A stretch of 64,000 nt of DNA from contig DUSX01000034.1 of NCBI GenBank assembly GCA_012842395.1, forward strand, positions 388,650-452,649, given 5' to 3'. Shown piece by piece: positions 1,501-61,262 of this stretch (its first letter is position 1; each line of letters opens with the position of its first letter). Under the pieces are notes generated by a model. The model was not told where the DNA came from and made no database searches. It saw only the letters and a program-made list of their open reading frames with translations. Source of the DNA: Bacillota bacterium (GTDB taxonomy: Bacteria; Bacillota; SHA-98; UBA4971). The position numbers were made by a program, and so were the translations under genes.

Positions 1501-1883
1501 GCCGCCCTCGCCTCCGTCGCGGGACAAATCCAGACCTGCCACGCTTGCCCGCTGTTTCCAGTATAACACCATGCAAGGGTGGCCGCAATTTCCTGCGCGG
1601 GGCCGGAGGACAAGCTCGGGCGTGCCGCCTGGGCATGAGGTCACGCGTTTTCCCTCGCCTCGTGACTTCGTGAGTTGTCGGCCGTCCCAGTGGTCCCACG
1701 AGAGCATTCAAGGTCAGGCCAGAGGCCGGACCCAGCCTGTCCCTGCTCTGGCGAACTACGCCTAAGTGAGGGTGCGGTGGCCCTTGCCTCATTCCTAGCA
1801 GTTGCCGGTCGCCGGCGTTGAACATCGGCAACCCCGGGCGTGGCCCCTCCGCCGGGAAGTAGCGCGAGCCTTCGGCGACATGC

Positions 1884-2537
1884 CTAAAGCAGGTACTTGG
1901 ATACCAGCCTGATGAACGCCGGTGCTACGTACGTGTCCGCGACGCTCCCGATGACTAGGAGGATCACGGCTCCGAGACACACGGCCGCCGTGAAGACGAA
2001 TTGCGGGTAGATTTGGGTTCTCCTCTGGCTCAGCCTGTCCACGGCGAGAGTCACCGCAAACGCGAGCGAAACCTCGCACGCCGCCAGTATCGCAGGGATT
2101 ATGAAGACATGCTGGGGGAGCACAGACGCGGCCGCCAGGATGACCCCCTTGGCACCCATCTCGTCGACGAGGAAACCCACGGTGAATCCGATGACGAAGC
2201 CTCTCAGGAACAGCAGAACCAGGATGCCGGGAGCCCCAATGACGGTGAGCCCTAACACCAGGGCCAACGCGACGGTCTTAAGGTTATTGTACAGCGCCTG
2301 CCTGGACGCAGCCGCCCCGCCAGCCTGGCCCTGTCCCTGGCCTCCGAAGCCCCTGAAAAAAACCATGAGGTCCTCAGCCAACTCCGCTCTTTGGCTCTCG
2401 GGCAATGCCTTCACCGAAAGGGAGCCGAAGATGACCCCCATCACAAACATGAACATGACCAGGACGAGGACGGGCAGGTGCCGCCTCAGGGAATCGCCGG
2501 AAGGCGCGAGAAGGGAACGCGAATCGTCCAGCATCAC
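1884..2537 (-). CDS. spoIIM: Stage II sporulation protein M (SpoIIM) family membrane protein
   Basis: 217 aa, multi-pass hydrophobic. Pattern ...VLPQHVFIIPAILAACEVSLAFAV... is typical of SpoIIM/DUF95. Firmicutes synteny with nudF and xerD. Confidence 0.65.
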   Translation of the reverse strand: MMLDDSRSLLAPSGDSLRRHLPVLVLVMFMFVMGVIFGSLSVKALPESQRAELAEDLMVFFRGFGGQGQGQAGGAAASRQALYNNLKTVALALVLGLTVIGAPGILVLLFLRGFVIGFTVGFLVDEMGAKGVILAAASVLPQHVFIIPAILAACEVSLAFAVTLAVDRLSQRRTQIYPQFVFTAAVCLGAVILLVIGSVADTYVAPAFIRLVSKYLL

Positions 2538-2599: not shown

Positions 2600-3160
2600 C
2601 TAAACGAGCCCTCTCGCTATCGCCATGAAGAGGCCGAGGAGGGTCTTGCCGTCTCTGATCTCACCCCTCGCTATCATGTCATCTAGCTCCGCGCGGGACA
2701 CTCGCCTGGTCTCGATGACCTCGTCCTCATCGGGCCTCTCATCTCCCGGCTCAAGGCTCCTCGCAAAGAAAAGGTGCAGCACCTCATCACAGAACCCCGG
2801 GGACGTGTAGAACGGCACGACTTCCTCGAGGACGCCCGCCCGGTAACCAGTCTCTTCCTCGAGCTCGCGCGCGGCGCACCGAAGAGGGTCCTCGCCTGGC
2901 TCGAGCTTCCCCGCGGGGATCTCCCATAGAGCTGACCGAACCGGGTACCTGAATTGACGCACAAGGATCACCGAGCTGTCGTGGTCTACAGCGACCACCG
3001 CAACCCCGCCCGGATGTTCCACGACTTCGCGCCGCGACCGCCTGCCCGACGGAAGCTCCACATCGTCCACGCGCAGCCGCAGGACGCTCCCGCTGTACAC
3101 CGTCGTAGAGCGCAGCTGCCTTTCCACAAGGTTTGGTTCGTCCAATCTCGATCCCTCCAA
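2600..3160 (-). CDS. nudF: NUDIX hydrolase, ADP-ribose pyrophosphatase-like
   Basis: Nudix box GKLEPGEDPLRCAARELEEETGY. N-terminus resembles Bacillus NudF (…VLRLRVDDVELPSGRRSRREVVEH). Confidence 0.8.
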   Translation of the reverse strand: MEGSRLDEPNLVERQLRSTTVYSGSVLRLRVDDVELPSGRRSRREVVEHPGGVAVVAVDHDSSVILVRQFRYPVRSALWEIPAGKLEPGEDPLRCAARELEEETGYRAGVLEEVVPFYTSPGFCDEVLHLFFARSLEPGDERPDEDEVIETRRVSRAELDDMIARGEIRDGKTLLGLFMAIARGLV

Positions 3161-3240: not shown

Positions 3241-3415
3241 GCGGGTTGCTAAGTATGTCGCCACAGGTTCGCGCTGCTCTCCGGCGGGGCGGTCCTGCCC
3301 AGGGTTGCCGGTGCTTGCACGACGGGGCGTAGGGAATTCGGCTGTCTTAAGCGCCAAACTCGAACGAAGAAGCGTAAGGTACGGGAGGCTGATTTGCGCA
3401 TGACCGTTATCATGC
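3241..3415. repeat. Copy E of the ~220-bp intergenic repeat family: left arm forward, core in inverted orientation
   Basis: gctaagtatgtcgccacaggttcgcgctgctctccggcggggcggtcctgcc matches the left arm of copies A and B. The following ...ggttgccggtgcttgcacgacggggcg...gaattcggc... is the reverse complement of the core of A and B. Confidence 0.6.
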
Positions 3416-3546: not shown

Positions 3547-4740
3547 TCAGCGCACCGCTTGTGCGATCTTCCCCGCGAGCATGCCCGCAGCGCCCGCTGC
3601 CAGGAAGAACACCGGGTCCTCGTCTGGCCCCCTCCCCATGGACGTGACGCGGATGCCTTCCCGGTTGAGCCTGTCGACAGCCGGCCGTCCGTCCTCGGTG
3701 AGAATGACGTGCCGCCGGTCTATCCCGTGCTCGGCAAGTTGAGCCATGAGGCGGCGCCACTCGCTGCGATGCAGCTCTGGCAAGGCTACAAGGCAAGGTA
3801 CCAGGGCGATCTCAGAAAGCACCGTGAGGGTGTGGTGGCTCACCCCGAAATGCCTCGCACGCTCGTCCGAGAAACTCACCCTGGGGACAATGACCGGCGT
3901 CCCTCCGAGAGAATACGCCGCGTTTACCACTTGTCCCTGCTCGATTCCGGAGAACCCGTACTTCGTCCCCGTGCCTGCTTGCCCAGGGCCCATGCCTACG
4001 ATGACGGCGTCAGCACGGGCGCACGCTCGCGCCGCAGCGAGGGCAGAGTAGACCGTCACGGCCTCGAGGTCGCCGCCGAACGCGTGGCCGCAGGTGATGA
4101 CCGAGTCGACGAGGCCTCTCTTCTTTAGGGCCGGCACGAGCGTGCTGTACGCAACTGGTAAGGCTCCTCCGTCCGTCATCACGTATACGACCCGCGCCGC
4201 TCCGCCCGCAGCCTCCTTTATCCCGGCCGCAGCAGGCGCGATCATGCTGTGAAGCTCACAAGCGACCACCGGTATCCCACCCAGTGAGCGAAACGCCTCT
4301 ATCTCCCGCCGGTGCGGGCTCGCCTCCTCCTCGACGGCCAAGCACCGGACCTGCACCGGCGTGTAGCGGACCTTCATTATGTGGCCTGGACCCGCTCGCA
4401 TGTCCAAACGCGTCCTGCCGATCACCCACATCACGAAGTGGTGGCCCCCAGTGCCGAGGCCAAGCTCCACCGCGGTGGTGTTCAGGACGACCTCGTCGCC
4501 CGGCGCACACGGACCGGTCAACGCCTCGTAACACAACGCCTCCGCAGGCTGGCCGTCGCAAACCACGTCAGCCTTGGCCACCCCTGGACCGAATGGCGTA
4601 ACCGACTTCACCACGCCGGTCCTCGCCCTCACCAACGCGCCGGTCGCCGCAGCGCTGAAGGACCCTCGTGCAGGGGTACGGCGCCCCGTGTCGTATGTTG
4701 TACAGTGAGAACTGGTGTCGTGCGCCAAATGTGGTGCCAC
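3547..4740 (-). CDS. Conserved hypothetical protein, possibly DUF3866/YqxK-like
   Basis: 397-aa ORF with no recognisable catalytic motif. Sits next to nudF as yqxK does in Bacillus. Family assignment is from memory, not a search. Start uncertain. Confidence 0.35.
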   Translation of the reverse strand: MAPHLAHDTSSHCTTYDTGRRTPARGSFSAAATGALVRARTGVVKSVTPFGPGVAKADVVCDGQPAEALCYEALTGPCAPGDEVVLNTTAVELGLGTGGHHFVMWVIGRTRLDMRAGPGHIMKVRYTPVQVRCLAVEEEASPHRREIEAFRSLGGIPVVACELHSMIAPAAAGIKEAAGGAARVVYVMTDGGALPVAYSTLVPALKKRGLVDSVITCGHAFGGDLEAVTVYSALAAARACARADAVIVGMGPGQAGTGTKYGFSGIEQGQVVNAAYSLGGTPVIVPRVSFSDERARHFGVSHHTLTVLSEIALVPCLVALPELHRSEWRRLMAQLAEHGIDRRHVILTEDGRPAVDRLNREGIRVTSMGRGPDEDPVFFLAAGAAGMLAGKIAQAVR

Positions 4741-5340
4741 AGGTTTTCGTCTCCCTTCTTGACGGCGCTAAGTGGAGGTGCGAAAATGCTTCCGATCATG
4801 ATCATTGGGATGGGTTGCCCAACACCGGCAACGCGGCGACCGGTGAAAACGGGGCAAAGACTAACGCGCCCTCACTTAGGGTTTCCTTCCGGCGCTTGCG
4901 CGACGGGCATCTGGAATCTCGCTAGGCTGCGCGCGGAATTCCAATGAGACGCACTGCAAGCTCGCCTCCCTGTCCGGCAAGACCGGCAACTCTGGGCCGG
5001 GGTTGCACGCTGAAGAGCGGCGCAGCCTTGTGGCGGTCCGCTTAGAATATCTTCCCCGAGCCGGGGGCAGCATACTCGATAGTGATTGAGTGGGAGTTCA
5101 GGCACGCACCCGCCTCTCTAGTGAGTATGGTGCCATAAGTTCTCGTCTCTTTTCTTGAGGGCACTAGGGACGCCGGTGCCTGCACGACGGGGCGTCGACG
5201 ATTCGGCAGGCCTGCGCGGCAAATCCGAACGAGGCACGCCGCGGGCGCGCCGTCCCCGGAGGGCAAGGCCGATAGCCTTAGGCAGGGCTTGCGCGCTGAA
5301 AAGCAGCGCGAACTTGTGGCGAACTACTAGCTAGTAACGT
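4725..5340 (-). repeat. Tandem cluster of the intergenic repeat family: truncated copy D, diverged copy D2 and full copy C (all reverse orientation relative to A and B)
   Basis: 4729-4772 atggtgccacaggttttcgtctcccttcttgacggcg is the rc of the right arm of copy B. 5117-5335 is a full-length reverse-complement copy (...gcctgcacgacggggcgtcgacgattcggcaggcctgcgcggcaaatccgaacgaggc...ccgtccccggagggcaaggccgatagccttagg...). Confidence 0.7.
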
Positions 5341-26425: not shown

Positions 26426-26773
26426 TTAGCGGCCTTCGGCGGGAGGCTTTCCACTCGTGAGCGAGGAGATCTCACGCATGAGGCTCTCCACCACTCCTTC
26501 TGGCACAGAGGCCTCGAGAGCTGCATCCAGCCGTTTGCCCTTCAACGCTAGCTCGAGGCACTTCGGGTCGGGGCAGATGTATGCCCCCCGCCCTGAGCGT
26601 TTCCCGGTGGGGTCCACCTCGATGACACCCTCCGGTGTGCGCACGATCCTGACGAGCTCCCTCTTGGGTCGGACCTGTCTGCATCCCACGCACGTACGCT
26701 GGGGAACCTTCTTTACTCTCTGCTGACGCGCCTTACCTCTCGCCATTGCGGCAATCCACCCGCCCCGCCTCAC
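26426..26773 (-). CDS. ylxR: YlxR/DUF448 RNA-binding protein (RnpM-like)
   Basis: …[23 protein letters not shown]…[22 protein letters not shown]… Lies between nusA and infB. Likely start is the internal M ([11 protein letters not shown]). Confidence 0.7.
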
Positions 26774-28380
26774 AGATCTACGTCCAGGTCCAGGTCATCG
26801 TCGAAATCGACGTCACGCTTGGACTTCTTCGGCACGCGGGTCTTCTTCGGTATCTCCTCGTCCAAGACCTCGTCTCTCTTCGCTTTGTCTTTCTTCTTGC
26901 GCCGGCCCGTAGTACCTTCGCCCGGGCCTTCCTTCTCCACCTGTTCGCCGCCCCTACCCGATGCTTCTGCGCCTGATGCTTCTGCGCTCGTTTCGGTGAC
27001 AGGCTCCGGCCGCTCAACCTCCTGCTCGTTCGCCTCGGACGAACCCGCAAACGCGCCCGCCTCAGCGGATCTCGGGCCTGAAAGCTCTACCGCCCGCTGC
27101 GATTCGGCAAGGCCTGCGGTCTCCCCGGCCTCGGCAGCCTCTCCGGTCTTGGGCTCGTCGTGAGCAGGCGCGGCTACATCCGGAATCACGTCTGGCGTCG
27201 CAGGCGGCAACTCTATCTCAGGCTGGGCCCGGCCTGCCGTCTCGGGCGCGGCCGGGCTCTCCGGCACGCCCTCGCAGGCCTCGGCGCGTGGCTCCTGCTC
27301 CCGCGCGGCCTCCTCTGCGGCCAGGCGTTCCTCTTCCTCCTCGAGCGCTCGGGCCTGCGAGTCGCTCTTGATGTCGATCTTCCACCCGGTGAGCTTGGCC
27401 GCGAGCCGGACGTTCTGGCCTTCCTTTCCGATCGCCAGGGAGAGCTGGTTGTCAGGCACGATCGCCCTGGCGATGTGGTTCGCCTCGTCGACGCGCGTCA
27501 AGATGACGCGCGCGGGACTCAGAGCGTTGGACACGTAAATGCCCGGATCATCATGCCATTGAATGATGTCTATCTTTTCGCCCCGCAGCTCAGCGACGAT
27601 CTTCTGGACCCGCATCCCCCGGGGGCCAACGCAGGCGCCTACGGCGTCCACATTCGGGTCATACGAAAGCACCGACACCTTGGCCCTGCTGCCAGCCTCT
27701 CTCGCAATGCCTTTTATCTCCACGGTCCCATCGTATACCTCAGGCACTTCGAGCTCCAACAGCCTCTTGAGAAGCCCTGGATGGCTCCGCGAGACGACCA
27801 CCTGAGGCCCTTTGGGCGTCTTTCTCGCCTCCACGATGTAGACCTTGATCCTGTCGCCGAATGAGTAGTTCTCCCGTTGCACCTGCTCAGATGGTGGCAT
27901 GACGGCCTCCACTCGGCCAAGGTCGACGATGACGTTGCGCATTTCCCGTCGCTGCACGATCCCCGTCACCACGTCGCCTTCCCTATTGCTGTACTCCTCG
28001 TAGATGACACCCCGCTCGGCCTCGCGGATCTTCTGCACCACCACCTGCTTGGCGGTCTGTGCCGCGATGCGCCCGAATTCACGGGGCGTGACCTCGACCT
28101 CGAAGACGTCGCCGATCTGGTGCGTCGGATCGACCGCCCGGGCCTCGTCCAGCGATATCTCCTGCCTGGGGTCCCGCGGCACCTCCACGACGTTCTTGTG
28201 AGCGTAGACGTTGATATCACCAGTTTCAGGGTCTATCTTCACCCTGACGTTCTGGGAAGAGCCGTAGTTGCGCTTGAACGCGGAGACCAGCGCTGTCTCA
28301 ATTGCCTCAAGCAGCGCAGCGCGCGGGATCCCCCGTTCTTTCTCAAGTTGCGTGAGCGCCTGAATGACCTCGGAATTCAT
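26770..28380 (-). CDS. nusA: Transcription termination/antitermination factor NusA with an acidic C-terminal tail of ~200 aa
   Basis: [40 protein letters not shown]… ATG at 28380 with GGAGGG 5 nt upstream. S1 and KH domains. Track ORF is over-extended to 28470. Confidence 0.9.
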
Positions 28381-28756
28381 CGTAACCCTCCTCGCCACCC
28401 GGCGAATTATCCCGTATTCCGTATCACAAGCCGCAAAATGCGGGCATTCCGCCCGCCCACCGAAGACCACGATCCAGGTCTACCCGCAGCCCAAGGCCCC
28501 AAGGCCCCAAGCAGGTCACCGGAAGTCCGCCGCGCCGCTTCTCGGCGCACAAGTCCCGCTCAGGGTCGCCGGCCTTGCTCTCCAGCTCCAGGCCTTGCCC
28601 TCCAGGGAGAAGACGCCTGCGGTGCGCCTCACCGAATCTCGCGCACGCTCCGCCCGAATTCCAGCCGCCCGGCCGTGCGAGCACCGGCAATCCTGGTACC
28701 GCCAAGAACCCCACAAGAAAGAGATGAAAACCCGTGGCACCGTGCCGCTCAGACGC

Positions 28757-29224
28757 CTAGACCTCCACAACGAGCCTCGCGTGGCTGATCTTCTCGCGTG
28801 GCACCTCCACCGTGCGCTCTCCCGTGTCGAGCCTGACCTTCCCGTCGGCCACGCCTAGAAGCCGGCCTTCAAGCGACTTCCTCCCGTCTACGGGCGCATA
28901 AGTCGTGATGAGCACCATGCGCCCGCGGAACCGCTCGTAATCACTCTCCCGCCTCAAAGGCTTCTCCCCCGAGGACGAGACCTCCAGCACGTAGCTCTGG
29001 GGGATCGGATCGAGCTCGTCCAGCTTGGCGCCGAGCTCGTTGTTGAGCCACTCGCAATCATCCATGGACACTCCCTCGGGCCGGTCGATATATACCCTGA
29101 GGTACCACTGCCCGCCTTCGCGGACATATTCCACGTCTACGAGCTCAATCCCTTTTCCGTCCAACATCGGTCGCAGGATCTCCGTGACCAGATTCTCGAC
29201 ATCCTCAGCTTTCACGTGATTTCC
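28757..29224 (-). CDS. rimP: Ribosome maturation factor RimP
   Basis: GTG at 29224 (GGAGGA, then 6 nt) gives MKAEDVENLVTEILRPMLDGKGIELVDVEYVREGGQWYLRVYIDRPEGVSMDDCEWLNNELGAKLD… Track ORF is over-extended to 29329. Confidence 0.85.
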   Translation of the reverse strand, partial: GNHVKAEDVENLVTEILRPMLDGKGIELVDVEYVREGGQWYLRVYIDRPEGVSMDDCEWLNNELGAKLDELDPIPQSYVLEVSSSGEKPLRRESDYERFRGRMVLITTYAPVDGRKSLEGRLLGVADGKVRLDTGERTVEVPREKISHARLVVEV

Positions 29225-29404
29225 TCCTCTGCTCGAACCCACAGTTCGAACGCACAGTGCAGGCCTCACGAGCCTGGTCTTCATCCCGGGCCGGGCCGCG
29301 TCGGGCCGCGTCGTGCAGGATGAAGCCAAACCACCTCACAACACGAGAGAGTGGGTTTCCCCACTCTCCACAATTGCTGCGACGTTCACAGCGCGAAGGC
29401 TCTG

Positions 29405-32360: not shown

Positions 32361-33572
32361 ATGCCTCTTCTCACTTATGATTCGCCCAACACCACCAGGG
32401 TTTTCGGAAGAGGACCGTACCAAACGAACGTCGCGGTAACGCAGCTTGTGTTCGGACGGCGATCCAATGCGGTGATACTCGCAAGCTCGGAGCATCCCTT
32501 GGACGCCGTGGCAGCCCTGTCGCTCGTCCATCAGCCGATCGACGGACCTGTGCTCCTTAGCCACCCGGGTGGTCTCGACCCCGTCGTCTTGGACGAGGTG
32601 CGGAGACTGGCACCAATCGGGGCAGAGGGACTTGCCCAGGTGATCATGATCGGGGCGCTCGACAGCGCGATTGAGCAGCAAGTGGCTTCCCTTGGCCTGT
32701 CGGTCATGAGGCTCACCGGTATCAATGCGTACCACACGGCGGCGGAGATCGCAAGGTTTCTTGGCTACCCTCGCGACGTGATGCTGTTGTCGGGGGAACA
32801 CCCGCTTTCCGGCCTGTGCGCAGGCGCAATGGCGGTGCACGGTGGCGTGCCGGTGCTGTTTACGCTCAAGGATGCCCTGCCACAGGAAACGGTTGCCGCG
32901 TTACGCGCCTCAGGAACGTCCACGAACGTCTTCATTATCGGGAACCGGGAGCTGATATCGGACAAGGTCGAGGAGACGGTGCGCGACCTCACCACGGGGA
33001 CGGTTGGACGAATCTCGGCTGAGGACCCGTTCGAGCTCGCCGTAAGGTTCGCGAAGTACCGTTCAGCAGACGGAAGGTTCGGATTTGGAAAGAACGACAA
33101 ACAGGGCCATGCGTTCACCTTCGTGAACCCGGGGAGATGGCAGGACGCGATATCCGGCGCGATCCTAGCGCACATGGGGAAACACACCCCGCTCCTTTTC
33201 TGCCGCCGGGACGACCTCCCTGCGGTCGTCCGCGACTACCTCCTTCGGATCAACCCGGCGCAGGGCAGGCCGGAGCCTCCCTTCATGCACGCGTTCATCG
33301 TGGGAGATCTCGACGCCATATCCGCGTCGGTGCAACTTGAGATAGACGAGACGATATCCATAGACAGAAAGGCTGATCACGAAGTCGTTCACACTGTCGC
33401 ACCAGGCGACAACCTTCTCCAAATCGCAAGGCGCTATGGCGTCCCGATCCGCGACATCGCCAGCGCGAACCAACTGTCGGGCGAGACCGGCCTTGCGCCT
33501 GGATCGCGACTGCTCATTCCCTATTCGGTGACGGGGTCGCCTCCCGCGCCGCCAGCGCAGGAGCTTCACTGA
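32361..33572 (+). CDS. LysM-domain protein with three cell-wall-binding (CWB2-like) repeats and no signal peptide
   Basis: Repeats of the type RVFGRGPYQTNVAVTQ…NAVILASSEHPLDAVAALSL…GPVLL. C-terminal LysM HTVAPGDNLLQIARRYGVPIRDIASANQLSGETGLAPGSRLLIP. AGGAGG 8 nt before the ATG. Confidence 0.6.
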   Translation: MPLLTYDSPNTTRVFGRGPYQTNVAVTQLVFGRRSNAVILASSEHPLDAVAALSLVHQPIDGPVLLSHPGGLDPVVLDEVRRLAPIGAEGLAQVIMIGALDSAIEQQVASLGLSVMRLTGINAYHTAAEIARFLGYPRDVMLLSGEHPLSGLCAGAMAVHGGVPVLFTLKDALPQETVAALRASGTSTNVFIIGNRELISDKVEETVRDLTTGTVGRISAEDPFELAVRFAKYRSADGRFGFGKNDKQGHAFTFVNPGRWQDAISGAILAHMGKHTPLLFCRRDDLPAVVRDYLLRINPAQGRPEPPFMHAFIVGDLDAISASVQLEIDETISIDRKADHEVVHTVAPGDNLLQIARRYGVPIRDIASANQLSGETGLAPGSRLLIPYSVTGSPPAPPAQELH

Positions 33573-33597
33573 ACCCGATCCCGTCGGATCGTCGCCC

Positions 33598-33820
33598 TAG
33601 ATATACCGCTACAAGCTCGGGCTGCCTTTGAGCGCGCGAGCGCGAACCCTGCCTGGGGTCGCCGGTTTGCCCCTCCCCTCCGGGAATGGCGCGCTTGCGG
33701 CGTCCCTCGTTCGGATTTGACGTGCAGGTTAGCAGACTCTCTGCGCCCCATCCTGCAGGCATTGGCAATCCTAGCCTACTCAAGCAATGATACGAAAACC
33801 TGTAGCGCCATGCTCAGAAT
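33598..33820 (+). repeat. Copy F (diverged) of the intergenic repeat family
   Basis: ctagatataccgctacaagc…ccctccgggaatggcgcgcttgcggcg.cctcgttcggatttgacg…cgaaaacctgtagcgccatgctcag aligns with copies A and B. Its right arm overlaps the stop codon of the beta-barrel gene. Confidence 0.55.
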
Positions 33821-35094
33821 CTGTACACGAGGGTGATTCCGGATTCGAACCCGTGGAGGTTTTTCGCCGGTCTGAGAGGGTACTCCCGGCGCTTGATCTC
33901 GGCCTCGTAGGCCACGTCAAGATCGCGTGACAGGGAGTAGGAGAGTCTCCACGTGGCCGTTGCCTCGTGATAATCGCCATCTCTTTCCCCCGAGTCGGTG
34001 TAACCCCTTTGGACGAACGCGCATCCGGCCCGCAAGGAGAGGTTCTTGCTCAGGGAGGTCTCCGCTTCGGCTCCAACGCTGCGAGCCTTGTATTCGTTTT
34101 TCGGGGACGCAGGCGCCTTGCGCTCGAACAACGCCCCTTCAAGAGTAAGGGTGCCAAGCACCGTCTTCTTCAGGCCGAGAGACATGGAGAGCTCGCGGTC
34201 GTGGTGGTCCTTCGCTGCCGCGAACGGGAACCGCTTGTCTACGTCGGAAAGCGCCACGTCTACCGAAAGGCGCGCCACAGGGTCCCACGACAAGGCGACC
34301 TCTCGGGTCGTTTGGTCGTAGGTTCGCCCCGTGGACTCGGGGTACATCGCGCGTTTTCGCTCGATTCTGACCCGCCCCTCCAGAGCCTTGGCCCGTTCGC
34401 CCGCAAGCTCGAGCCAGCATGCCGTGGTGGCCGAGCTCTTCTTCGGTTCGACCCAGTAATCCCTGCTAACAACGTCGAAGCCCGCCAGAACCGACACCTG
34501 TGATACCGGGGCCATCTTCAACTCGCCTGCCACTTCCCGGCGTTCGTGGTCGCTCTCAGGTCGGGCTGGATACGCGGTTTGCTCTCGTTCCCACGCAAGG
34601 TTCGCGGACAATCCGGTGGCAAGAGGCTTCCACCCGAGCGCCGCCCTGACAATCGTCGAGATGCATTCCCTCCCCTGGCCGGCAGAGTCATCGGACTCGA
34701 CCGTTCTGCTCTTCCTGGCGTCAAGGTCCAGGCTGAGCCCTCCCCCCATCTTGGCTGCAAGGGCCGCGGCCGCGTAGCCCAGCGCGCCGCGCCCGTCTGG
34801 AGCAGGCCGTGCGCCAAACGCGACATCGCACGACATCCCGCCGACGGACGGCAGGCGGAGCTTGCCGTCGAACGCCATGTCCAGCTTCATCCCATGGTTC
34901 GCGGGATCCTCGTGGAAAGAGAGGACCTCCAGCGTGAACTTGCCGCTTAGTCGCGCCGCCCCCAGTATCCACCAGCCGCCGGGATTTTCGTCGCCCGCCG
35001 CCGTCGCCTCTCCCGGAAAACAAGTCAACCACACCGCGAGTGCACACGCGACCACGCAGCCCAGCCTGATAACGCCCGCCTTGTTACTACCCAT
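33814..35094 (-). CDS. Putative outer-membrane beta-barrel protein (signal peptide; C-terminal ...TLVYRF)
   Basis: ATG at 35094 gives MGSNKAGVIRLGCVVACALAVWLTCFPGEATAAG (a signal peptide). Alternating hydrophobic strands. Terminal aromatic motif I-T-L-V-Y-R-F. Track ORF is over-extended to 35286. Confidence 0.4.
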   Translation of the reverse strand: MGSNKAGVIRLGCVVACALAVWLTCFPGEATAAGDENPGGWWILGAARLSGKFTLEVLSFHEDPANHGMKLDMAFDGKLRLPSVGGMSCDVAFGARPAPDGRGALGYAAAALAAKMGGGLSLDLDARKSRTVESDDSAGQGRECISTIVRAALGWKPLATGLSANLAWEREQTAYPARPESDHERREVAGELKMAPVSQVSVLAGFDVVSRDYWVEPKKSSATTACWLELAGERAKALEGRVRIERKRAMYPESTGRTYDQTTREVALSWDPVARLSVDVALSDVDKRFPFAAAKDHHDRELSMSLGLKKTVLGTLTLEGALFERKAPASPKNEYKARSVGAEAETSLSKNLSLRAGCAFVQRGYTDSGERDGDYHEATATWRLSYSLSRDLDVAYEAEIKRREYPLRPAKNLHGFESGITLVYRF

Positions 35095-35344
35095 GCCCGC
35101 CGTTGCCTCCCCGATAGTGCTGAGGGTCGAAGCGCGCAGCCTGCGTCGGCCCCTACTGACCGATGGCCTCCGCTGACTCATGGACAGGTGTCTCCATAAT
35201 ACCATGACCTGCCATGGATGCCAATCCCACTTTCGGGTGATTCTCCCTTGCACTGGCAACGGCTTCTCGCCGCCAAGTAAATGCAAAGACCCCCCGACGC
35301 AGCAGACATGCGCGCATCGGGAGGCCTTTTAAGCGCCGACTTGA

Positions 35345-35705
35345 CTCGTCTCTATCTAAGTATGTCGCCAAAAGTGCGCGCTACTCTCCGGCGGAGGGGA
35401 TCCTGTCTAAGGCTATCGGCTTTGCCCTCCGGGGACCGCGCGCTTGCAGCGCGCCTCGTTCGAATTCGGCGCGCAAGCCTGCCGAATTCTCCACGCCCCG
35501 TCGTGCAAGCACCGGCAACCCTAACGCCGTCAAGAAAGGAGACGAAAACTTACGGCGCCATACTTAGAGCAGATCGCCACAAGCTCGCCATACTTACATC
35601 GCAACGCTAAGGTCCTGTCCGCGATTGCCGCTGCCGTCCTCAGGGGGACGGCGCGCTCGCGGCGCGCCGCCTCGTCAGGATTCGGGGCCTTGAGGCGCAC
35701 TTGCG
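35345..35705 (+). repeat. Copies A (full) and A2 (partial), forward tandem pair of the intergenic repeat family
   Basis: A: ctaagtatgtcgccaaaagtgcgcgctactctccggcgg…ccctccggggaccgcgcgcttgcagcgcgcctcgttcgaattcggcgcgcaagcctgccgaattctccacgccccgtcgtgcaagcaccggcaaccctaacgccgtcaagaaaggagacgaaaacttacggcgccatacttag. A2 repeats the core (…cagggggacggcgcgctcgcggcgcgccgcctcgtcaggattcgg…ttgcgccatactcc). Confidence 0.7.
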
Positions 35706-35806
35706 CCATACTCCATGCTCCCAAGCCGTGCAAGCACTCGCAACAATCCAGGCGTCCCGGGAACGGGAGGCGAGGATTCCCGGCTCCGCAAAACCCAGAG
35801 CCTCAC

Positions 35807-36031
35807 CTATTTGCGCTTCTTCACAAGGCCCAGCGCCACAGCTTTTGCATAGTCCTTGCAGTGCTCGCAGTCCTTCCAGCAATCCAAGCACCCCTCGTCG
35901 GAATCCCAGCAGTTGTCGTGCCTGGCATAAACAGGGCAGATGAGGTAAAGGCTCGCAGGACACCCTCTCAACTGCCTGCAGCTTCTCAGGCTGGCAACGG
36001 ACACTCCTTCCGGGAGCTCGACCTCGGCCAC
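35807..36031 (-). CDS. Small cysteine-rich protein (74 aa, 9 Cys), function unknown
   Basis: GTG start preceded by AAAGGGTGA. Motifs CX5C…CX8C…CLDCWKDCEHC. Basic C-terminus KKRK. Its own sigma-A-like promoter lies upstream. Confidence 0.4.
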   Translation of the reverse strand: MAEVELPEGVSVASLRSCRQLRGCPASLYLICPVYARHDNCWDSDEGCLDCWKDCEHCKDYAKAVALGLVKKRK

Positions 36032-36082
36032 GCGTTATCACCCTTTCATGTCAGTTGGCCCAGATGTTTCCCCCGGTGGGAG

Positions 36083-36111
36083 TGTATCACAGGGCACCGC
36101 ACGCGTCAACT
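36083..36111 (-). promoter_or_regulatory. Sigma-A-type promoter for the Cys-rich ORF (TTGACG-N17-TACACT)
   Basis: Minus strand reads TTGACGCGTGCGGTGCCCTGTGATACACT, about 45 nt upstream of the GTG start. Confidence 0.35.
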
Positions 36112-36184
36112 TGGCCGCCGCCCAGCCCCACCGCCTTCGGCCGCGTGCTGCTGGCTTCCTGGCCTCATTCGCCGGTGTGCCCTC

Positions 36185-36385
36185 TACACGAGATGAGCTC
36201 TCGTTTCGTTGCATGGCGGTGTGCGGCTGCCGACGCTTGCATCACGGGTCTAGAGGATTTGCCCAGCTCGTGCGCGGAATTCGGGCGAAGCTCGCCCCGA
36301 GTGCGCCGTCCCCGGAGTGCAACGCCAGCACCCCCGCCACGACCACCGCTCCACAATGCAGCGCCGACTTCCGGCGATATGCTTA
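36185..36385 (-). repeat. Copy G of the intergenic repeat family (reverse orientation, inverted relative to copy A)
   Basis: …gcggaattcgggcgaagctcgccccgagtgcgccgtccccggagtgcaacgcc…gatatgcttagaac parallels reverse-orientation copy C (…gcgcgccgtccccggagggcaa…). Abuts the stop codon of the downstream P-loop gene. Confidence 0.5.
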
Positions 36386-37714
36386 GAACAGCCTGCCCGT
36401 GAACCTTTCCACGATTATCTCTTCCAGGGTCGGATGCCCGATCTCCTCGAGCTCATACCGCACCCGGAGCGCTGGCTTGGTTATGTTTATCACGCGGCGT
36501 AGATCGATAGGCGTGCCGATGACAACTACGTCCGCGGGTGTCCTGTTGATCGTCTCCTCCAATTCCCTTATTTGCTCCCTCCCGTAGCCCATGGCCGGCA
36601 GCAATGGTTCCAGCTCGGGGTATTTCCTCAAGGTGGCCTTGATGGAGCCAACGGCGTAAGGCTCCGGATCCACAAGCTCCGCTGCTCCATGGCGCCTAGC
36701 CGCTATCACGCCCGCACCGTAGGTCATGCCGCCGTGGGTAAGGGTAGGACCATCCTCGACCACGAGCACTCTCTTTCCGCGTATCATGTCGCCCTGTTCG
36801 AGCACGACCGGGGATGCCGCGCGGATGACCACAGCCCCCGGATTGATCTTCCTCACCGCGGCCTCGACCCGGTCCACATCGTCGGGTTTCGCGGTGTCGA
36901 CTTTGTTCAGGATGACCACGTCAGCCATGCGGAGATTGGTCTCGCCTGGGTGAAACGATGTCTCGTGCCCGGGCCTGTGCGGGTCGGCAAGGGTGATCAG
37001 GAGGTCCGGCTCATAGAATGGCATATCGTTGTTGCCGCCGTCCCAGAGCACAACCTCTGCCTCTTTCTCCGCCTCCCGCAGAATCGCGCCGTAATCGACG
37101 CCGGCGTAGACCACGAACCCCCTCGCGATGTGCGGCTCGTACTCTTCGCGCTCCTCGATCGTGGTGTCGTATCTGTCGAGGTCCTCAAACGTTGCAAACC
37201 TCTGCACCCTCTGCTTTATCAGGTCGCCGTACGGCATGGGATGCCGGACCACAACGGTCCTTTTCCCGTGTCTCTTCATGATCTCCGTCACCCTGCGCGT
37301 CGTCTGGCTCTTGCCAACACCCGTCCTCACAGCCGTTACCGCAATGACGGGCACCTGCGACCTCAGCATCGTGGTGGTGGGGCCCATAAGCCTGAAGTCG
37401 GGCCCCTTCGCAAGCGCGACCGACGCCTTGTGCATCACGTCCAGGTGAGAAACGTCACTGTACGCGAACACAACCTCGTCCACGCCGTGCTTCTCTATGA
37501 TGGCCGGGAGCTCTTCCTCGGAGAGGATCGGGATCCCGTCCGGGTAACCGTCGCCCGCGAGCTCGGGCGGATATCGTCTCCCCTCGATGTTCGGGATCTG
37601 TGTCGCGGTGAACGCCACCACCTCGTACTCTTGGTTGCCGCGGAAGAATGTGTTGAAATTGTGGAAGTCACGCCCAGCGGCGCCCATGATCACTACCTTG
37701 GTCTTGTTGGCCAC
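36383..37714 (-). CDS. P-loop NTPase of the cyclic 2,3-diphosphoglycerate synthetase-like family; candidate accessory/chaperone of the ornithine aminomutase operon
   Basis: …KVVIMGAAGRDFHNFNTFFRG… Walker A VTAVRTGVGKSQTT. Last gene of the ord-ort-ora operon. Start uncertain: GTG at 37714 (GAGG, then 6 nt), or ATG at 37768 as in the track. Confidence 0.55.
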   Translation of the reverse strand: MANKTKVVIMGAAGRDFHNFNTFFRGNQEYEVVAFTATQIPNIEGRRYPPELAGDGYPDGIPILSEEELPAIIEKHGVDEVVFAYSDVSHLDVMHKASVALAKGPDFRLMGPTTTMLRSQVPVIAVTAVRTGVGKSQTTRRVTEIMKRHGKRTVVVRHPMPYGDLIKQRVQRFATFEDLDRYDTTIEEREEYEPHIARGFVVYAGVDYGAILREAEKEAEVVLWDGGNNDMPFYEPDLLITLADPHRPGHETSFHPGETNLRMADVVILNKVDTAKPDDVDRVEAAVRKINPGAVVIRAASPVVLEQGDMIRGKRVLVVEDGPTLTHGGMTYGAGVIAARRHGAAELVDPEPYAVGSIKATLRKYPELEPLLPAMGYGREQIRELEETINRTPADVVVIGTPIDLRRVINITKPALRVRYELEEIGHPTLEEIIVERFTGRLF

Positions 37715-39134
37715 TTGAGACCTCACTCCCGTCTTTTCTTGAATGATACGGGCTCTCGCGAACGCCATGACAGCCCGCGAGCCCCAAGCTCCGAAGCATT
37801 ATCGCTACGGCGGCGTCTGGATGGAATCTCGCAAGCACGCCGCATGATGCCATCACGTAGTCCCTGTCTATCACGCACCTCGCGTCAGGCGGCGGAAGGA
37901 GCCGGGTGTCACCCCGTCGCCCTTTCGCGCCCTCCAATATGAACCCGCCGCCCGGCAGCCTCGCCACCGCCCCGCCGGTCCCGATGATCCACTTGACCTT
38001 CGTCAGGTCCTTTCCCTCGGCCACCGTCACCCTGCCGAGCGGGCCGTACAGGTGCCGGACTTGGCCCGCATGGCGCCGAACTGCTATCTGCGCGGCCTCC
38101 GCGGCGAGCGCACGTGCAAACCGAAGCCCCTTTTCCGTCGAAGGCACCGGCTCGAGCTCCTGCAGCGCCTCGACGGGATCAAAGCCAAGATCCTGTGCAA
38201 GCTTATCGGGACCCACGAGGTCGACAATGTTCGACGCGTTGATGAAAACGCCCAGATCGCCCTCAACCGTGCGCTTGGCAACAGGCTCTGGGCTCGTCAG
38301 GATCTTCGCGACCTCTTCCGATCCTTCGGTCACCGAGTGCACGTCAGTGGTCGCTCCTCCCACATCGATGACCACCAGGTCCCCAATCGCCTCATACAGC
38401 AGCTTGGCTGCAGCCATCACCGCACCGGGCGTCGGCATGATCCCGCTGCTCACCACCTCGCGCACGCGGGCCATTCCGGGAGCGGTCACGATGTGCTCCT
38501 CGAACACCCTCTGGATCGCCCGCCTTGCAGGCTCGATGTTCAGGACGTCTACCCGAGGGTACACGTTCTCGACGATCGTGACTGCCGTCCCGGCCCCGTC
38601 GAAAATGGCCTTTACCTCGCCCTGGATAGCTCTGTTGCCCGCGTATATCACGGGCGCGCCCATGCGCGCCGCAGCGATGAGCCGGGCGTTGCGAAGAACC
38701 GTGTCCCTGTCGCCGAAATCCACACCCCCGGCGAGCAGGATGATGTTCGGCCGAACCTCGCGGAGCCTGGCCAGGTCGGTGTCAGACAGCGGTCCCGCGG
38801 TCACCATCCTCAGGATCGCGCCGGCCCCGAGCGCGGCTTCCTTTGCGGCCTTGACCGTCATGTCGTATACGAGCCCGTGGACGGTCATCCTGAGGCCACC
38901 CGCCGCGCTCGACGTGGCGAGGAGCAACTTGTACCCTACTTTCTCCGCGCCGAGACAGCGAGCGAGATCTTCCATGGCCCTTTCCAGGCCCAGCCAGACG
39001 TCGCCTTGCCGAACGCTCGTGAGCGCCCGGCCTTGCCCCAGGAACACCGGATTCGGCCCGCCAAGCCCGTCGAAGGCGTTCACCAGAGTCGTAGTGCTCC
39101 CGATCTCTGCAATCAATGCGTCTACGTTTAACAT
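37668..39134 (-). CDS. GlmL/MutL-family protein (glutamate mutase L-like, actin-fold ATPase); putative B12-enzyme reactivase component
   Basis: MLNVDALIAEIGSTTTLVNAF… is the xIDIGSTxT signature of GlmL. Its ATG overlaps the oraE stop (ATGTTAA). The Arg-rich first 79 aa of the track ORF are spurious. Confidence 0.7.
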   Translation of the reverse strand: MLNVDALIAEIGSTTTLVNAFDGLGGPNPVFLGQGRALTSVRQGDVWLGLERAMEDLARCLGAEKVGYKLLLATSSAAGGLRMTVHGLVYDMTVKAAKEAALGAGAILRMVTAGPLSDTDLARLREVRPNIILLAGGVDFGDRDTVLRNARLIAAARMGAPVIYAGNRAIQGEVKAIFDGAGTAVTIVENVYPRVDVLNIEPARRAIQRVFEEHIVTAPGMARVREVVSSGIMPTPGAVMAAAKLLYEAIGDLVVIDVGGATTDVHSVTEGSEEVAKILTSPEPVAKRTVEGDLGVFINASNIVDLVGPDKLAQDLGFDPVEALQELEPVPSTEKGLRFARALAAEAAQIAVRRHAGQVRHLYGPLGRVTVAEGKDLTKVKWIIGTGGAVARLPGGGFILEGAKGRRGDTRLLPPPDARCVIDRDYVMASCGVLARFHPDAAVAIMLRSLGLAGCHGVRESPYHSRKDGSEVSSGQQDQGSDHGRRWA

Positions 39135-53166: not shown

Positions 53167-53874
53167 GAAGCCACGGGACCTTGCCGCCCCGGGCGATCGG
53201 CAGCCTCCCTCCTCTTCGATTGTCCTTCGTCCGCCTTCCGCCGCGGTTCAGCGCAACGCACAAAAACAATACCTCGGTAGGCGCCGATCCAGCGACCGCC
53301 GAGGCAGTGTCGTGCGACTCCTTCGGCCGTTGGTATTCTAACACGCGTGCAGGACGTTGTAAAGGCAGCCCTAGCCGACCTACCTTGCCCTGACGGGGAT
53401 CTCGTGTGCTCCTACCCGGTAGGCGGCTGGTTCGGAACTCCTAAGGCTTTCGTCCAAGTCGTCTATGCCAGCCTGCGGCTGACCCCATCGAAAGGATGTA
53501 GATGGCAGCCATCGATCGTTTTCAAGGTAGTCGCCCATGGTGGCCAGGTGCCGCCGCCACGGAGGGATTGAAAACGACAACTGAGTGCTACTTTCAAGAC
53601 AGTCGTCCGTGACGGCGGGCTGCCGCCGCCATCAAGAAGATGAGGCTAGCGACCGCCGCCCGTTTTCGGGGTAGAAAGCTGTTCCCTGTAGAAGGATATG
53701 TGACGGAGGCAGCGAAATACTTTTACGAGAATCAATATAGCCTATGTTGCATATAGCATCGAGTCATTCGAATATACAGACAACAACTTTGCGTCCTGCA
53801 ATGGGACGTGCGTGGACGCTATGATCACGGCCCTATAAGCGGTCGCTTCGGGCCGCGGGAGCGAATAGCGAGAC

Positions 53875-53914
53875 CGGCCACGCACCTGTTTAGGTGTGTG
53901 GCCGGTTATTTCGC
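53875..53914 (+). terminator. Rho-independent terminator on the plus strand in the tig/helicase intergenic region
   Basis: CCGGCCACGCACC-TGTTTA-GGTGTGTGGCCGG followed by TTATTTCG. No annotated plus-strand gene ends here. Confidence 0.45.
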
Positions 53915-54110
53915 CCCTGCAGGTCCGCGGGCACACCAATGGGATCGGGGTGAAATGGGATGGAACTCGCTCGAAGAGCAAGGCGCTGGTGGCACCGGCA
54001 GCTCATAATCAACCCGGGTCGCGTTGATTCCTGGCTCGTGAGCCTCCTCAGCATCCTCGCAACGGCTGGCATCGTAGCGGTGATCGTGCGCTTCATGGGG
54101 TAGCCGCTTG

Positions 54111-57100: not shown

Positions 57101-57177
57101 TGGGGTGGATGATGGGATTCGAACCCACAGCCTCTGGAGCCACAGTCCAGCGCTCTCACCATTGAGCTACATCCACC
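57101..57177 (-). tRNA. tRNA-His (anticodon GTG), with encoded G-1 and CCA
   Basis: Reverse complement folds as G|GTGGATG|TA|GCTC|AATGGTGA|GAGC|G|CTGGA|CTGTGGC|TCCAG|AGGCT|GTGGG|TTCGAAT|CCCAT|CATCCAC|C|CCA. The extra 5' G pairs with discriminator C73, which is His-specific. Confidence 0.85.
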
Positions 57178-61025: not shown

Positions 61026-61262
61026 GTTCATCTAAGTATGTCGCCAAAAGTTCGCGCTACTTTTCGGCGGGCGGTCCTGCCTGAGGCTATCCTATCGGCC
61101 TTGCCCTCCGGGGACGGCGCGCTTGTGGCGCCGCGCCTCCGCCGCGCCTCGTTCGGATTCGGCGCCTAGGACGGCCGAATCCTCCACGCCCCGTCGTGCA
61201 CGTACCGGCAACCCCAACGCCGTCAAGAAAGGAGACGAAAACCTGTGGCGCCATAATTAGGC
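61026..61262 (+). repeat. Copy B (full-length) of the intergenic repeat family
   Basis: atctaagtatgtcgccaaaagttcgcgctacttttcggcgggcggtcctgcc…ccctccggggacggcgcgcttgtggcgccgcgcctccgccgcgcctcgttcggattcggcgcctaggacggccgaatcctccacgccccgtcgtgcacgtaccggcaaccccaacgccgtcaagaaaggagacgaaaacctgtggcgccataattagg. Confidence 0.7.

Follow-up and report, generated by a model that had tools for sequence, protein, structure and literature searches.

Intergenic hairpin repeats of G+C-rich anaerobic-digester Bacillota are very probably non-coding transposable elements that target CTAG

The MITEs of bacteria (miniature inverted-repeat transposable elements) typically have terminal inverted repeats (TIRs), 5'-TA-3' termini and target-site duplications (TSDs), and their transcripts fold as long stem-loops (PMC2229807). 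Elements of the IS630 family insert at the dinucleotide TA and duplicate it (PMC2170065); the same paper, citing Tenzen & Ohtsubo 1991, gives TA within CTAG as the preferred target of IS630. We examined a family of roughly 211-bp repeats in a 64,000-nucleotide stretch (hereafter the window) of contig DUSX01000034.1 from a Bacillota bacterium (assembly GCA_012842395.1). This stretch lies within a 498-kb contig of a biogas-fermenter metagenome (ENA ERZ925059, k127_8635). The repeats are very probably a family of CTAG-targeting, TA-duplicating, non-coding MITEs that are bounded by TIRs and mobilised in trans. Elements of this kind are well known, but the family itself, or small superfamily comprising arm types A, B and C, is previously undescribed and resides in G+C-rich, uncultured Bacillota of anaerobic digesters. 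An initial annotation of the window had already pointed to one repeat family recurring in intergenic DNA, which the profile matches given below bear out. That description is largely accurate, except for its reading of one cluster as 2.5 tandem copies and for the weight that it placed on a single compensatory change.

Related copies were sought by scanning a 22-nt core motif, GCCCCGTCGTGCANGNACCGGC, across one genome per GTDB species. The scan matched 99 blocks of 8 kb: 44 in the metagenome-assembled genome (MAG) Yes71-24 (JASEJE01), 31 in MAG107 (JBLNDE01), 12 in UBA6811 (DKEX01), six in MAG135 (a bin labelled Betaproteobacteria), three in other Bacillota or Clostridia MAGs (one each) and three in unrelated phyla. 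These last three, in Mycobacteriales, Ideonella and Phycisphaeraceae contigs, were set aside as chance, with no element present. Loci, mostly 8-kb blocks of related MAGs, are designated here by L-numbers (L003 and so on). With nhmmer, 173 non-redundant copies are found in the 99 blocks, in at least five MAGs, and 72 of these are full length. The consensus has no match among PLSDB plasmids or INPHARED phages (blastn, distant mode), and a plasmid or phage origin was rejected on this ground. The initial annotation recognised no known family, in agreement with these results and with the Rfam searches reported below. Literature on IS630- or CTAG-type MITEs yielded nothing similar, no search having been aimed at this repeat or host lineage. 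The contigs of JBLNCC01 "Betaproteobacteria bacterium MAG135" (L025, L056, L058, L065, L082 and L095) carry the MITE, including the copies closest to the window subfamily. One study produced both MAG135 and MAG107, and protein families of the Bacillota loci recur on the MAG135 contigs; this bin probably carries a wrong label or was wrongly binned.

A full copy of type A spans about 211 bp, with sharp ends C-TA-AGTAGATCGCC…GGCGCCATACT-TA-G, and forms one long rod-like hairpin (consensus CTAAGTAGATCGCCACAAGTTCGCGCTACTTTTCAGCGCGCAAGTCC..CCAGGGTTGCCGGTGTTGCCCTCCGGGGACGGCGCGCTTGCGGCGCGCCTCGTTCGAATTTGGCGC....GCCAAATTCTCGACGCCCCGTCGTGCAAGCACCGGCAACCCCAACACCGTCAGGAAAAGTGGCGCAAACTTATGGCGCCATACTTAG). 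Conservation begins abruptly at C1 and stops at G211, beyond which the flanks are random. The first eight and last eight positions are conserved in 46-65 of 66 copies, exceeding 75% at 13 of these 16. Reverse-complemented, the right end (CTAAGTATGGCGCCATAAGTTTGCGC) matches the left end (CTAAGTAGATCGCCACAAGTTCGCGC), and the TIRs extend for about 25-30 bp. Terminal inverted arms CTAAGTATGTCGCCA and GGCGCCATA(C/A)TTAG, as first described, are indeed present, except that the outermost C-TA and TA-G derive from the target and lie outside the element. A flanking C is found in 62 of 66 copies and a flanking G in 61; position 4 carries A in 46 copies, and T occupies position -4 in 60. The outermost C-TA-AGT...ACT-TA-G is common to all arm types. 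Elements are 60-65% G+C and measure about 211 bp (type A), 186 bp (type B) or 106-126 bp (type C). They hold no conserved open reading frame (ORF); the ORFs that span copy 61032-61260, overlapping and on both strands, all stay below 62 aa.

Between MAG107 and Yes71-24, orthologous 8-kb blocks whose flanks are 93-98% identical show at least four filled/empty differences. Three such sites and one nested insertion all have CTAG-like targets, and two of these four cases show a clean TA duplication. The filled site L003 reads CATCGG-C-TA-[AGTGTGAG...CCCACACT]-TA-G-CTGGCG (element AGTGTG...CACACT) and its empty counterpart L041 reads CATCGGCTAGGTGGCG; the empty junction, CGGCTAGG, reveals a clean TA duplication within CTAG. 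Filled L076, gcgt-C-TA-[GGTAGATC...CCATACT]-TA-G-agacc (element GGTAG...ATACT), is matched by empty L070, gagtCCAGagacc (CCAGagacc), and the pair fits a TA duplication with one substitution in the empty allele. The third pair consists of filled L046, ggtg-C-TA-[AGTAG...CATACT]-TG-G-ctctt, and empty L067, ggtgCTAActctt, where the target tetranucleotide occurs once. Exactly one C-Y-A-R tetranucleotide stands at the junction of all three empty sites. Because the outer tetranucleotides CTAA...TTAG are inverted rather than direct, a 4-bp duplication is excluded; a 4-bp or 3-bp TSD and an IS200/IS605-like insertion 3' of CTAA are each less consistent with the sites than a TA duplication. Insertion at TA with duplication of TA is the signature of IS630/Tc1-mariner elements. 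The initial annotation had suggested looking for TSDs and empty sites, and these three pairs, one of them with a clean TA duplication at CTAG, are what the look returned.

To place the copies of the window itself, an nhmmer profile was built from three full copies and run over the 64 kb. It gives 12 matches with E-values of 6e-71 to 3.5e-3, the best three lying at 35357-35567 (+), 5122-5329 (-) and 61033-61260 (+). Diverged copies match at 33601-33817 (+), 36194-36385 (-), 28509-28742 (+), 4877-5039 (-) and 35568-35744 (+), and fragments at 3249-3369, 4727-4772 (-) and 1827-1884. A generic repeat finder recovers the same family. By profile search the window holds 10 elements or fragments at eight intergenic loci; the six loci listed initially are all among them, and two had been missed, 28507-28749 and 1762-1887. 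The elements and the evidence for each are as follows.

1762..1887, no strand assigned: short hybrid element of about 126 bp (nhmmer 1827-1884, E=0.0035, and inverted repeats I11-I13)
3249..3376, plus strand: truncated type-A element, 5' arm on the plus strand followed by an inverted ("flop") core, 3' part absent
4725..5045, minus strand: second type-A element, host of a nested insert, 321 bp as it stands and 213 nt after excision
4768..4879, minus strand: nested 106-bp type-C element (4771-4876) with its flanking target (sequence reading and excision test)
5118..5331, minus strand: intact type-A element of about 211 bp (nhmmer 225 bits, profile positions 3-210)
28507..28749, plus strand: diverged full-length type-A copy, 243 bp, with small insertions (63.8 bits, profile positions 3-204)
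33597..33817, plus strand: diverged type-A copy, 221 bp (nhmmer); its last bases are the stop codon of the gene at 33814-35286 (-)
35356..35567, plus strand: intact type-A copy, 212 bp (nhmmer 233 bits)
35566..35768, plus strand: diverged, 3'-degenerate type-A copy that directly abuts 35356..35567 (43 bits, profile positions 4-163)
36185..36386, minus strand: diverged type-A copy; its terminal TTA is the TAA stop codon of the gene at 36383-37768 (-)
61032..61260, plus strand: intact type-A copy, 229 bp (nhmmer 220 bits)

Together the elements make up about 2.1 kb, or 3.3% of the whole window and 23% of the non-coding part. By strand, the profile matches comprise five plus and six minus copies, without orientation bias, and every copy falls between ORF-based gene calls; the statement that copies occur in both orientations and never interrupt a gene therefore stands. 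The host is a spore-forming member of the Bacillota, and the first 16 kb contain a spoIIAA/spoIIAB/sigF-like operon, spoIIM, a xerD-like integrase gene, a DUF3866 gene and a Germane-domain gene. Genes flanking the copies are housekeeping genes (nusA, rimP, fusA, spoIIM, xerD-like), and their assignments reveal no insertion sequence (IS) or prophage near the copies. The element at 61032..61260, which has an internal insertion of about 14 nt in its first tip hairpin, is flanked by genes for an ABC solute-binding protein and an MFS transporter. By Pfam assignment, the copy at 28507-28749 lies between rimP (28757-29329, -) and nusA (26770-28470, -). It thus sits in what is normally the rimP-nusA-infB operon, in the orientation opposite to the genes, and its reverse complement would belong to a polycistronic rimP-nusA mRNA.

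One rearrangement in the window concerns 4725-5340, which had been taken for a tandem cluster of 2.5 copies. Copies of the family do lie there, but TRF detects no array, and a nested-insertion structure replaces the tandem reading: an intact copy (about 5118-5331, -) is separated by a 75-nt spacer from a second copy (4725-5045, -) that is split by a 106-bp relative. Read on the minus strand, the intact copy is (G)CTAGTAGTTCGCCAC ... GGCACCATACTCAC(TAG). From 5045 to 4725 on the same strand, a type-A copy runs up to ...CCGGAAGGAAACC-C-TA, gives way to 106 nt of type C (AGTGAGGGCGCG...CACCTCCACT) and resumes with TA-G-CGCCGTCAAGAAGGGAGACG...CCACATTTGG. The insert is preceded by ...AAACC C TA and followed by TA G CGCCGTC, with the duplicated TA at 4877-4878 and 4769-4770 inside a split target C...G (4879, 4768). 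Excision of the insert together with one TA leaves 213 nt that yield a single profile match of 94.5 bits (positions 8-209), compared with 50.5 and 29.8 bits before, and the restored junction, CCCTAGCGCC, is exactly that of the uninterrupted paralogues L058 and L056. The left arm of the nested element is related to 1762-1807 (inverted repeat I13). Many further nested insertions occur at the elements' own CTAG sites, GGCTAGCC in the second tip hairpin and CCCTAGCAAG; automated excision over all loci, with a TIR threshold that was too strict, returned one further nested case, L057:1657-1855. It is because the elements carry internal CTAGs that clusters such as 4725-5340 and 35356-35567/35566-35768 form.

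Two observations on gene calling and assembly belong to this cluster. The start of the DUF3866 gene is placed at a TTG at 4728 in the public call and at a GTG at 4740 in the longest ORF, both positions being within the MITE's 3' end, just after its GGGAGA tract; translation probably begins in fact about 100 nt downstream. Two Logan contigs, SRR31366474_327491 (L101) and SRR31359995_2915330 (L102), both stop at the cluster's edge, 69 nt upstream of the Germane-domain gene.

Could another class of enzyme leave such sites? An IS5-group transposase would duplicate 3-4 bp at CTAG/YTAR, and a Y1 (HUH) enzyme, as for the palindrome-associated transposable elements (PATEs) derived from IS200/IS605 or for repetitive extragenic palindromes (REPs) and their REP-associated tyrosine transposases (RAYTs), would insert 3' of a CTAA/CTAG tetranucleotide without duplication. 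We regard this as highly improbable. The single C-Y-A-R at each of the three empty-site junctions is compatible with it, the L046/L067 pair needs fewer substitutions as an insertion 3' of CTAA than as a TA duplication, and as single-stranded DNA the entire element can form a hairpin. There is also a precedent in the IS5-derived MITEPsy1, which duplicates CTAG or YTAA (PMC3189936). Against such enzymes, the outer CTAA/TTAG are inverted, so that there is no 4-bp duplication, and both the nested case and L003/L041 fit C-TA-[...]-TA-G exactly. PATEs derived from IS200/IS605 lack TIRs, have sub-terminal hairpins and insert, with strand bias, 3' of a fixed tetra- or pentanucleotide without duplication. 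We rejected this class for the present elements, which have TIRs of 25-30 bp, TA on both sides of the nested insert and mixed orientation (five plus and six minus in the window). REPs and bacterial interspersed mosaic elements (BIMEs) are G+C-rich palindromic units of about 20-40 nt without TIR or TSD, associated with a Y1 RAYT gene. The REP-like option raised in the initial annotation fails on the unit of about 211 nt, the TIRs and the TA duplication. A REP/BIME-like array of another repeat family, absent from the window, does occur in these MAGs: a 562-bp insertion in MAG107 (L022:1748-2311, relative to Yes71-24 L053:~3037-3040) consists of about a dozen short palindromes TGGTCGC-N-GCGACCA at a spacing of about 40 nt.

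The distribution of CTAG in the window is skewed. The tetranucleotide occurs 57 times against 218 expected from composition, an approximately four-fold under-representation that makes it the rarest palindromic tetranucleotide of its composition class. Its density is three-fold higher in spacers (2.1 per kb) than in coding DNA (0.7 per kb), and of the 19 non-coding sites, 10 are situated in or at elements. Both strands of CTAG include TAG; a C-preceded TAG stop codon is consequently a target, and a stop (C-TAA...) survives the insertion. Of the 144 ends that the 72 full copies have, 20, belonging to about 28% of these copies, fall exactly on the stop codon of an adjacent ORF, the window copies 33597-33817 and 36185-36386 among them. 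That copies never interrupt a gene is thus attributable to the CTAG target together with purifying selection. The minus-strand copy at 36185-36386 has a counterpart in Yes71-24 (L050:6007-6221, +), at the same site abutting the stop codon of the orthologous gene and in the opposite orientation, which points to two separate insertions at one CTAG stop-codon target, or else to an inversion.

Within the element, the 5' and 3' halves are imperfect inverted repeats of one another, and either strand can therefore fold into a long rod that has two small hairpins at its tip. The most conserved part is a core of about 110 nt, in which an inner stem GGGTTGCCGGTGTTGC/GCAAGCACCGGCAACCC encloses a junction with two hairpins and most columns are at least 90% conserved. 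The AAGAAAGGAGACGAAAAC tract and CGCGCGCTTGCAGCGCGC hairpin singled out earlier are both found in the sequence. The core is common to at least three arm types (A, B and C) and to A/B hybrids, and the arms of A, B and hybrids have no relation in sequence. Many copies are of type B (CTAAGTGTGGGTTCAGAAATCACCGCCACTTTTCCAGGG-core-GAATCTTCTCCCAAACCGGCATGGATTTCTGAACTCACACTTAG, about 186 nt); type C (CTAAGTGAGGGTGCG...CTGCACCCTCACTTAG) is more distant. In the hybrid at 1762..1887 the left arm is of type C (CTAAGTGAGGGTGCG...), and a 5' arm of type A, inverted, is joined to it (...GGCGACATGCCTAAAG). Deletion derivatives also exist, some consisting of ends only (for example L016:1525-1616) and one copy having an internal deletion.

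Occasionally the core is inverted relative to the arms. Such "flop" variants account for two of 74 complete copies (L061:4583-4794 and L088:4928-5153) and for the truncated window copy, in which profile positions 2-76 match the plus strand and 98-211 the minus strand of the same stretch. The locus first listed as 3241-3415 is accordingly a family copy, but one that is truncated (3249 to about 3376) with its core turned against its arm. The arms keep their left/right identity; recombination or template switching between the inverted inner stems is the likely origin of these variants. A further peculiarity concerns the 3' arm of the window subfamily (35525-35567, 61221-61260), AAGGAGACGAAAAC(T/C)T(A/G)(C/T)GGCGCCATA.TTAG, in which an AAGGAGA resembling a Shine-Dalgarno sequence precedes by 8 nt an ATG/GTG-like codon; reading outward from this codon, no stop is met before the flank. 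The motif could create translational starts into downstream DNA; it is probably incidental, as other subfamilies lack it. A role as a cis-regulatory leader was rejected, because the motif is confined to the window subfamily, others having CAGGGAAGATGGCGC or CAAGAAAAGTGGCG, and orientation is random.

Conservation of the core across arm types raises the possibility that these MITEs carry a domesticated module of about 110 nt, be it a binding site for a host protein, a hairpin for stability or processing of mRNA or an element of DNA structure, with the arms serving mobility only. Columns that are mostly at least 90% conserved between unrelated arms speak for it, as does the copy in the rimP-nusA operon, which would be co-transcribed. 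Moreover, species with about 70-82% identity in the surrounding DNA retain copies at the same intergenic sites: Yes71-24 locus L050 has copies at positions matching 33597-33817 (L050:3590-3800) and 35356-35567 (L050:5175-5385). The two corresponding pairs differ in their divergence. One has a core 86% identical and arms 67-78% identical; the other is only 59-64% identical over its whole length, its core (64%) being no better preserved than its arms. This second pair counts against domestication, and so does the occurrence of the core in either orientation with respect to genes and occasionally with respect to its own arms. Core conservation can also reflect cis needs for transposition or recent amplification from few master copies. 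On balance we consider domestication unlikely. There is likewise an outside chance that the core is no inert filler but a functional module with a host or element-level role that spreads by hitch-hiking on different TIRs; it could recruit transposase at an inner site, process or stabilise the mRNAs in which it lands, or act as a protein-binding platform.

The predicted folds are very stable. For the two strands of the copy at 35354-35569 the values are -91.6 kcal/mol (z about -3.7) and -101.4 kcal/mol (z about -3.9), and for the consensus -112 and -118 kcal/mol. The initial annotation listed dispersed structured non-coding RNA as one option, and genes for such RNAs, or cis-regulatory RNA leaders, with a fold kept by selection deserve consideration. 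RNAalifold on a 67-sequence MAFFT alignment returned a nearly empty structure (15 pairs) owing to gap placement, and the minimum free energy structure of the consensus was mapped onto the alignment instead. On this structure 88.9% of cells are paired, as against 88.5% in shuffles, so that pairing mostly reflects plain column conservation. Pairs changed on both sides number 30 versus 19.7 in shuffles (0/500), an excess that related sequences can produce against such shuffles; they are concentrated in the tip hairpin and outer arms. The compensatory difference GAATTCGGC/GCCGAATTC versus GGATTCGGC/GCCGAATCC between 35356 and 61032, originally taken to argue for selection on structure, is real, but the family-wide excess is small. 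It can arise without RNA function, through co-evolution of transposase-binding arms or through quasi-palindrome template switching.

Apart from this excess and the stable folds, the RNA-gene reading can draw on clear compensatory differences in the tip hairpin, on a diverged subfamily (L090:1375, L052:6352, L029:6521 and L025:1401) that rebuilds both tip hairpins in different sequence, and on five G.U positions fixed in the plus orientation. However, those five consensus positions contribute about 271 of the 526 G.U cells, and the remaining 255 or so equal the 249 A.C cells. The approximately 2:1 excess of G.U was therefore discarded as a signal of the transcribed strand, neither strand being favoured outside the five positions; the opposite strand folds at least as well. 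Orientation with respect to the upstream/downstream genes is random (opposite/opposite 20, opposite/same 12, same/opposite 16, same/same 11), and copies are enriched in convergent and divergent spacers. No recurrent promoter- or terminator-like signal is present inside the copies. Rfam 15 matches none of the elements at gathering threshold in the window, nor at E<=10 over 33500-36500, which includes four copies, and a known RNA family was rejected on this basis. Insertion polymorphism, TA duplication, nesting and truncation are behaviours of transposons, and one sister-species pair has diverged uniformly, core included. Thus the RNA-gene reading is not supported and appears quite improbable, the hairpin being an architectural property of the transposon.

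The MITE-like option of the initial annotation, by comparison, is well supported by TIRs, sharp ends, presence/absence polymorphism, TA duplication, nesting and deletion derivatives. We propose that a transposase supplied in trans binds the TIRs AGTAGATCGCCAC... and ...ATGGCGCCATACT, excises the element and re-inserts it at the TA of 5'-CTAG-3', duplicating the TA. From the duplication, the enzyme would be a TA-duplicating DDE transposase of the IS630/Tc1-mariner type. With CTAG rare in the genome, sites that tolerate insertion would be found mostly in spacers, at C-preceded TAG stop codons and in earlier copies of the element, and it is the location of such sites that would explain the intergenic restriction, the copies placed exactly at stop codons and the nested or abutting clusters. 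Hybrids may have formed in two steps, a nested insertion at the CTAG within the core and then recombination of the core segments thus duplicated. The long fold would follow from how the transposon is built and, possibly, from what transposition requires in cis.

Several observations weigh against this proposal. TA is found at both ends in only 33 of 66 copies, and the L046/L067 pair requires two extra substitutions for a clean TA duplication. A search of about 0.8 Mb of related DNA found no autonomous partner with matching ends; long stretches there that are bounded by matching TIRs turn out to be pairs of MITEs only, and near the copies there is no multi-copy transposase family, transporter-like paralogues alone recurring. 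Isolated left and right ends, searched for a parent element, were remnants or hybrids only. Three strains of the window's species at 99.5% identity (including two bioreactor contigs, of identical content) show no insertion polymorphism and so no sign of current activity. Finally, conservation of the core equals or exceeds that of the termini and is higher than that of the sub-terminal arms, which is unusual for a MITE and only partly explained; binding of transposase to the tips alone does not account for it.

Outside the repeats, the window has its only two Rfam matches at gathering threshold, one tRNA and one riboswitch. The tRNA gene, unrelated to the repeats, lies at 57104-57176 (-; 75.2 bits). 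The riboswitch is a c-di-GMP-II-GAG aptamer at 53805-53888 (+; 66.4 bits, gathering score 40). Downstream of it there is no clear plus-strand gene, as a 320-aa plus-strand ORF (54108-55070) overlaps an 894-aa minus-strand ORF (54111-56795), and just upstream is a pair of 40-nt direct repeats (53520-53559 and 53592-53631).

For practical purposes, the repeats fragment short-read assemblies of the host organism, as the two Logan contigs that end at the cluster illustrate, and they may help to explain the presence of carrier contigs in a "Betaproteobacteria" bin. Their ends can mislead the start-codon choice of gene callers, one called start being inside an element end. A named family profile would improve annotation of an abundant, uncultured anaerobic-digester lineage. 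If the proposed mechanism holds, the family provides a clear-cut case in nature of transposition in G+C-rich Bacillota that is specific to CTAG and duplicates TA, in which stop codons are a major safe landing site because insertion regenerates a stop, and in which elements seed their own nested clusters through internal CTAGs. No new kind of biology is opened unless the conserved core proves functional.

Among described systems, RUP (repeat unit of pneumococcus), whose proposed partner is IS630-Spn1, is likewise a non-coding MITE of Firmicutes (Bacillota) with TIRs, TA insertion and high intergenic copy number; it tends to insert into other mobile elements, and an IS630-family transposase acting in trans is the presumed agent of its mobilisation (PMC2229807). 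RUP differs in being 107 bp long and A+T-rich with 9-bp TIRs, whereas the present elements measure about 211 bp, are 60-65% G+C, have TIRs of about 25-30 bp and contain a conserved branched core. The two share no sequence similarity, and no partner IS was found for the present elements in the related DNA searched. IS630 of Shigella sonnei and ISY100 insert at TA with a 2-bp TA duplication (PMC2170065), and, according to that source (with Tenzen & Ohtsubo 1991 therein), IS630 prefers TA within 5'-CTAG-3', the same target that we infer; these are, however, autonomous elements of about 1-1.2 kb encoding a DDE transposase, whereas the present elements encode nothing.

The Correia/NEMIS repeats of Neisseria are also short MITEs with TIRs of about 24-26 bp, TA duplication and no known transposase, occurring in hundreds of intergenic copies in either orientation, with internal-block size variants and long-hairpin transcripts (PMC2229807). 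They differ in their length of 105-155 bp and in having an IHF site and promoter elements, whereas the present elements are without a recurrent promoter-like signal, inhabit a G+C-rich Bacillota host and have a target specificity that extends to CTAG. Transcripts of Correia/NEMIS are processed by RNase III. The enterobacterial repeats ERIC/IRU and YPAL (RU-2) resemble the present family as imperfect palindromes, of about 127-168 bp, in transcribed intergenic regions and in either orientation, with a central inverted repeat that is the most constant part and copies that persist at orthologous sites (PMC2229807). Unlike the present elements, with their filled/empty sites, TA duplication and nesting, ERIC has very short TIRs (about 7 bp) and poorly documented mobility. 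MITEPsy1 of Pseudomonas syringae is another small MITE specific for CTAG/YTAA targets (PMC3189936), but it is of IS5-family origin and duplicates all 4 bp, whereas in the present elements only the TA is duplicated.

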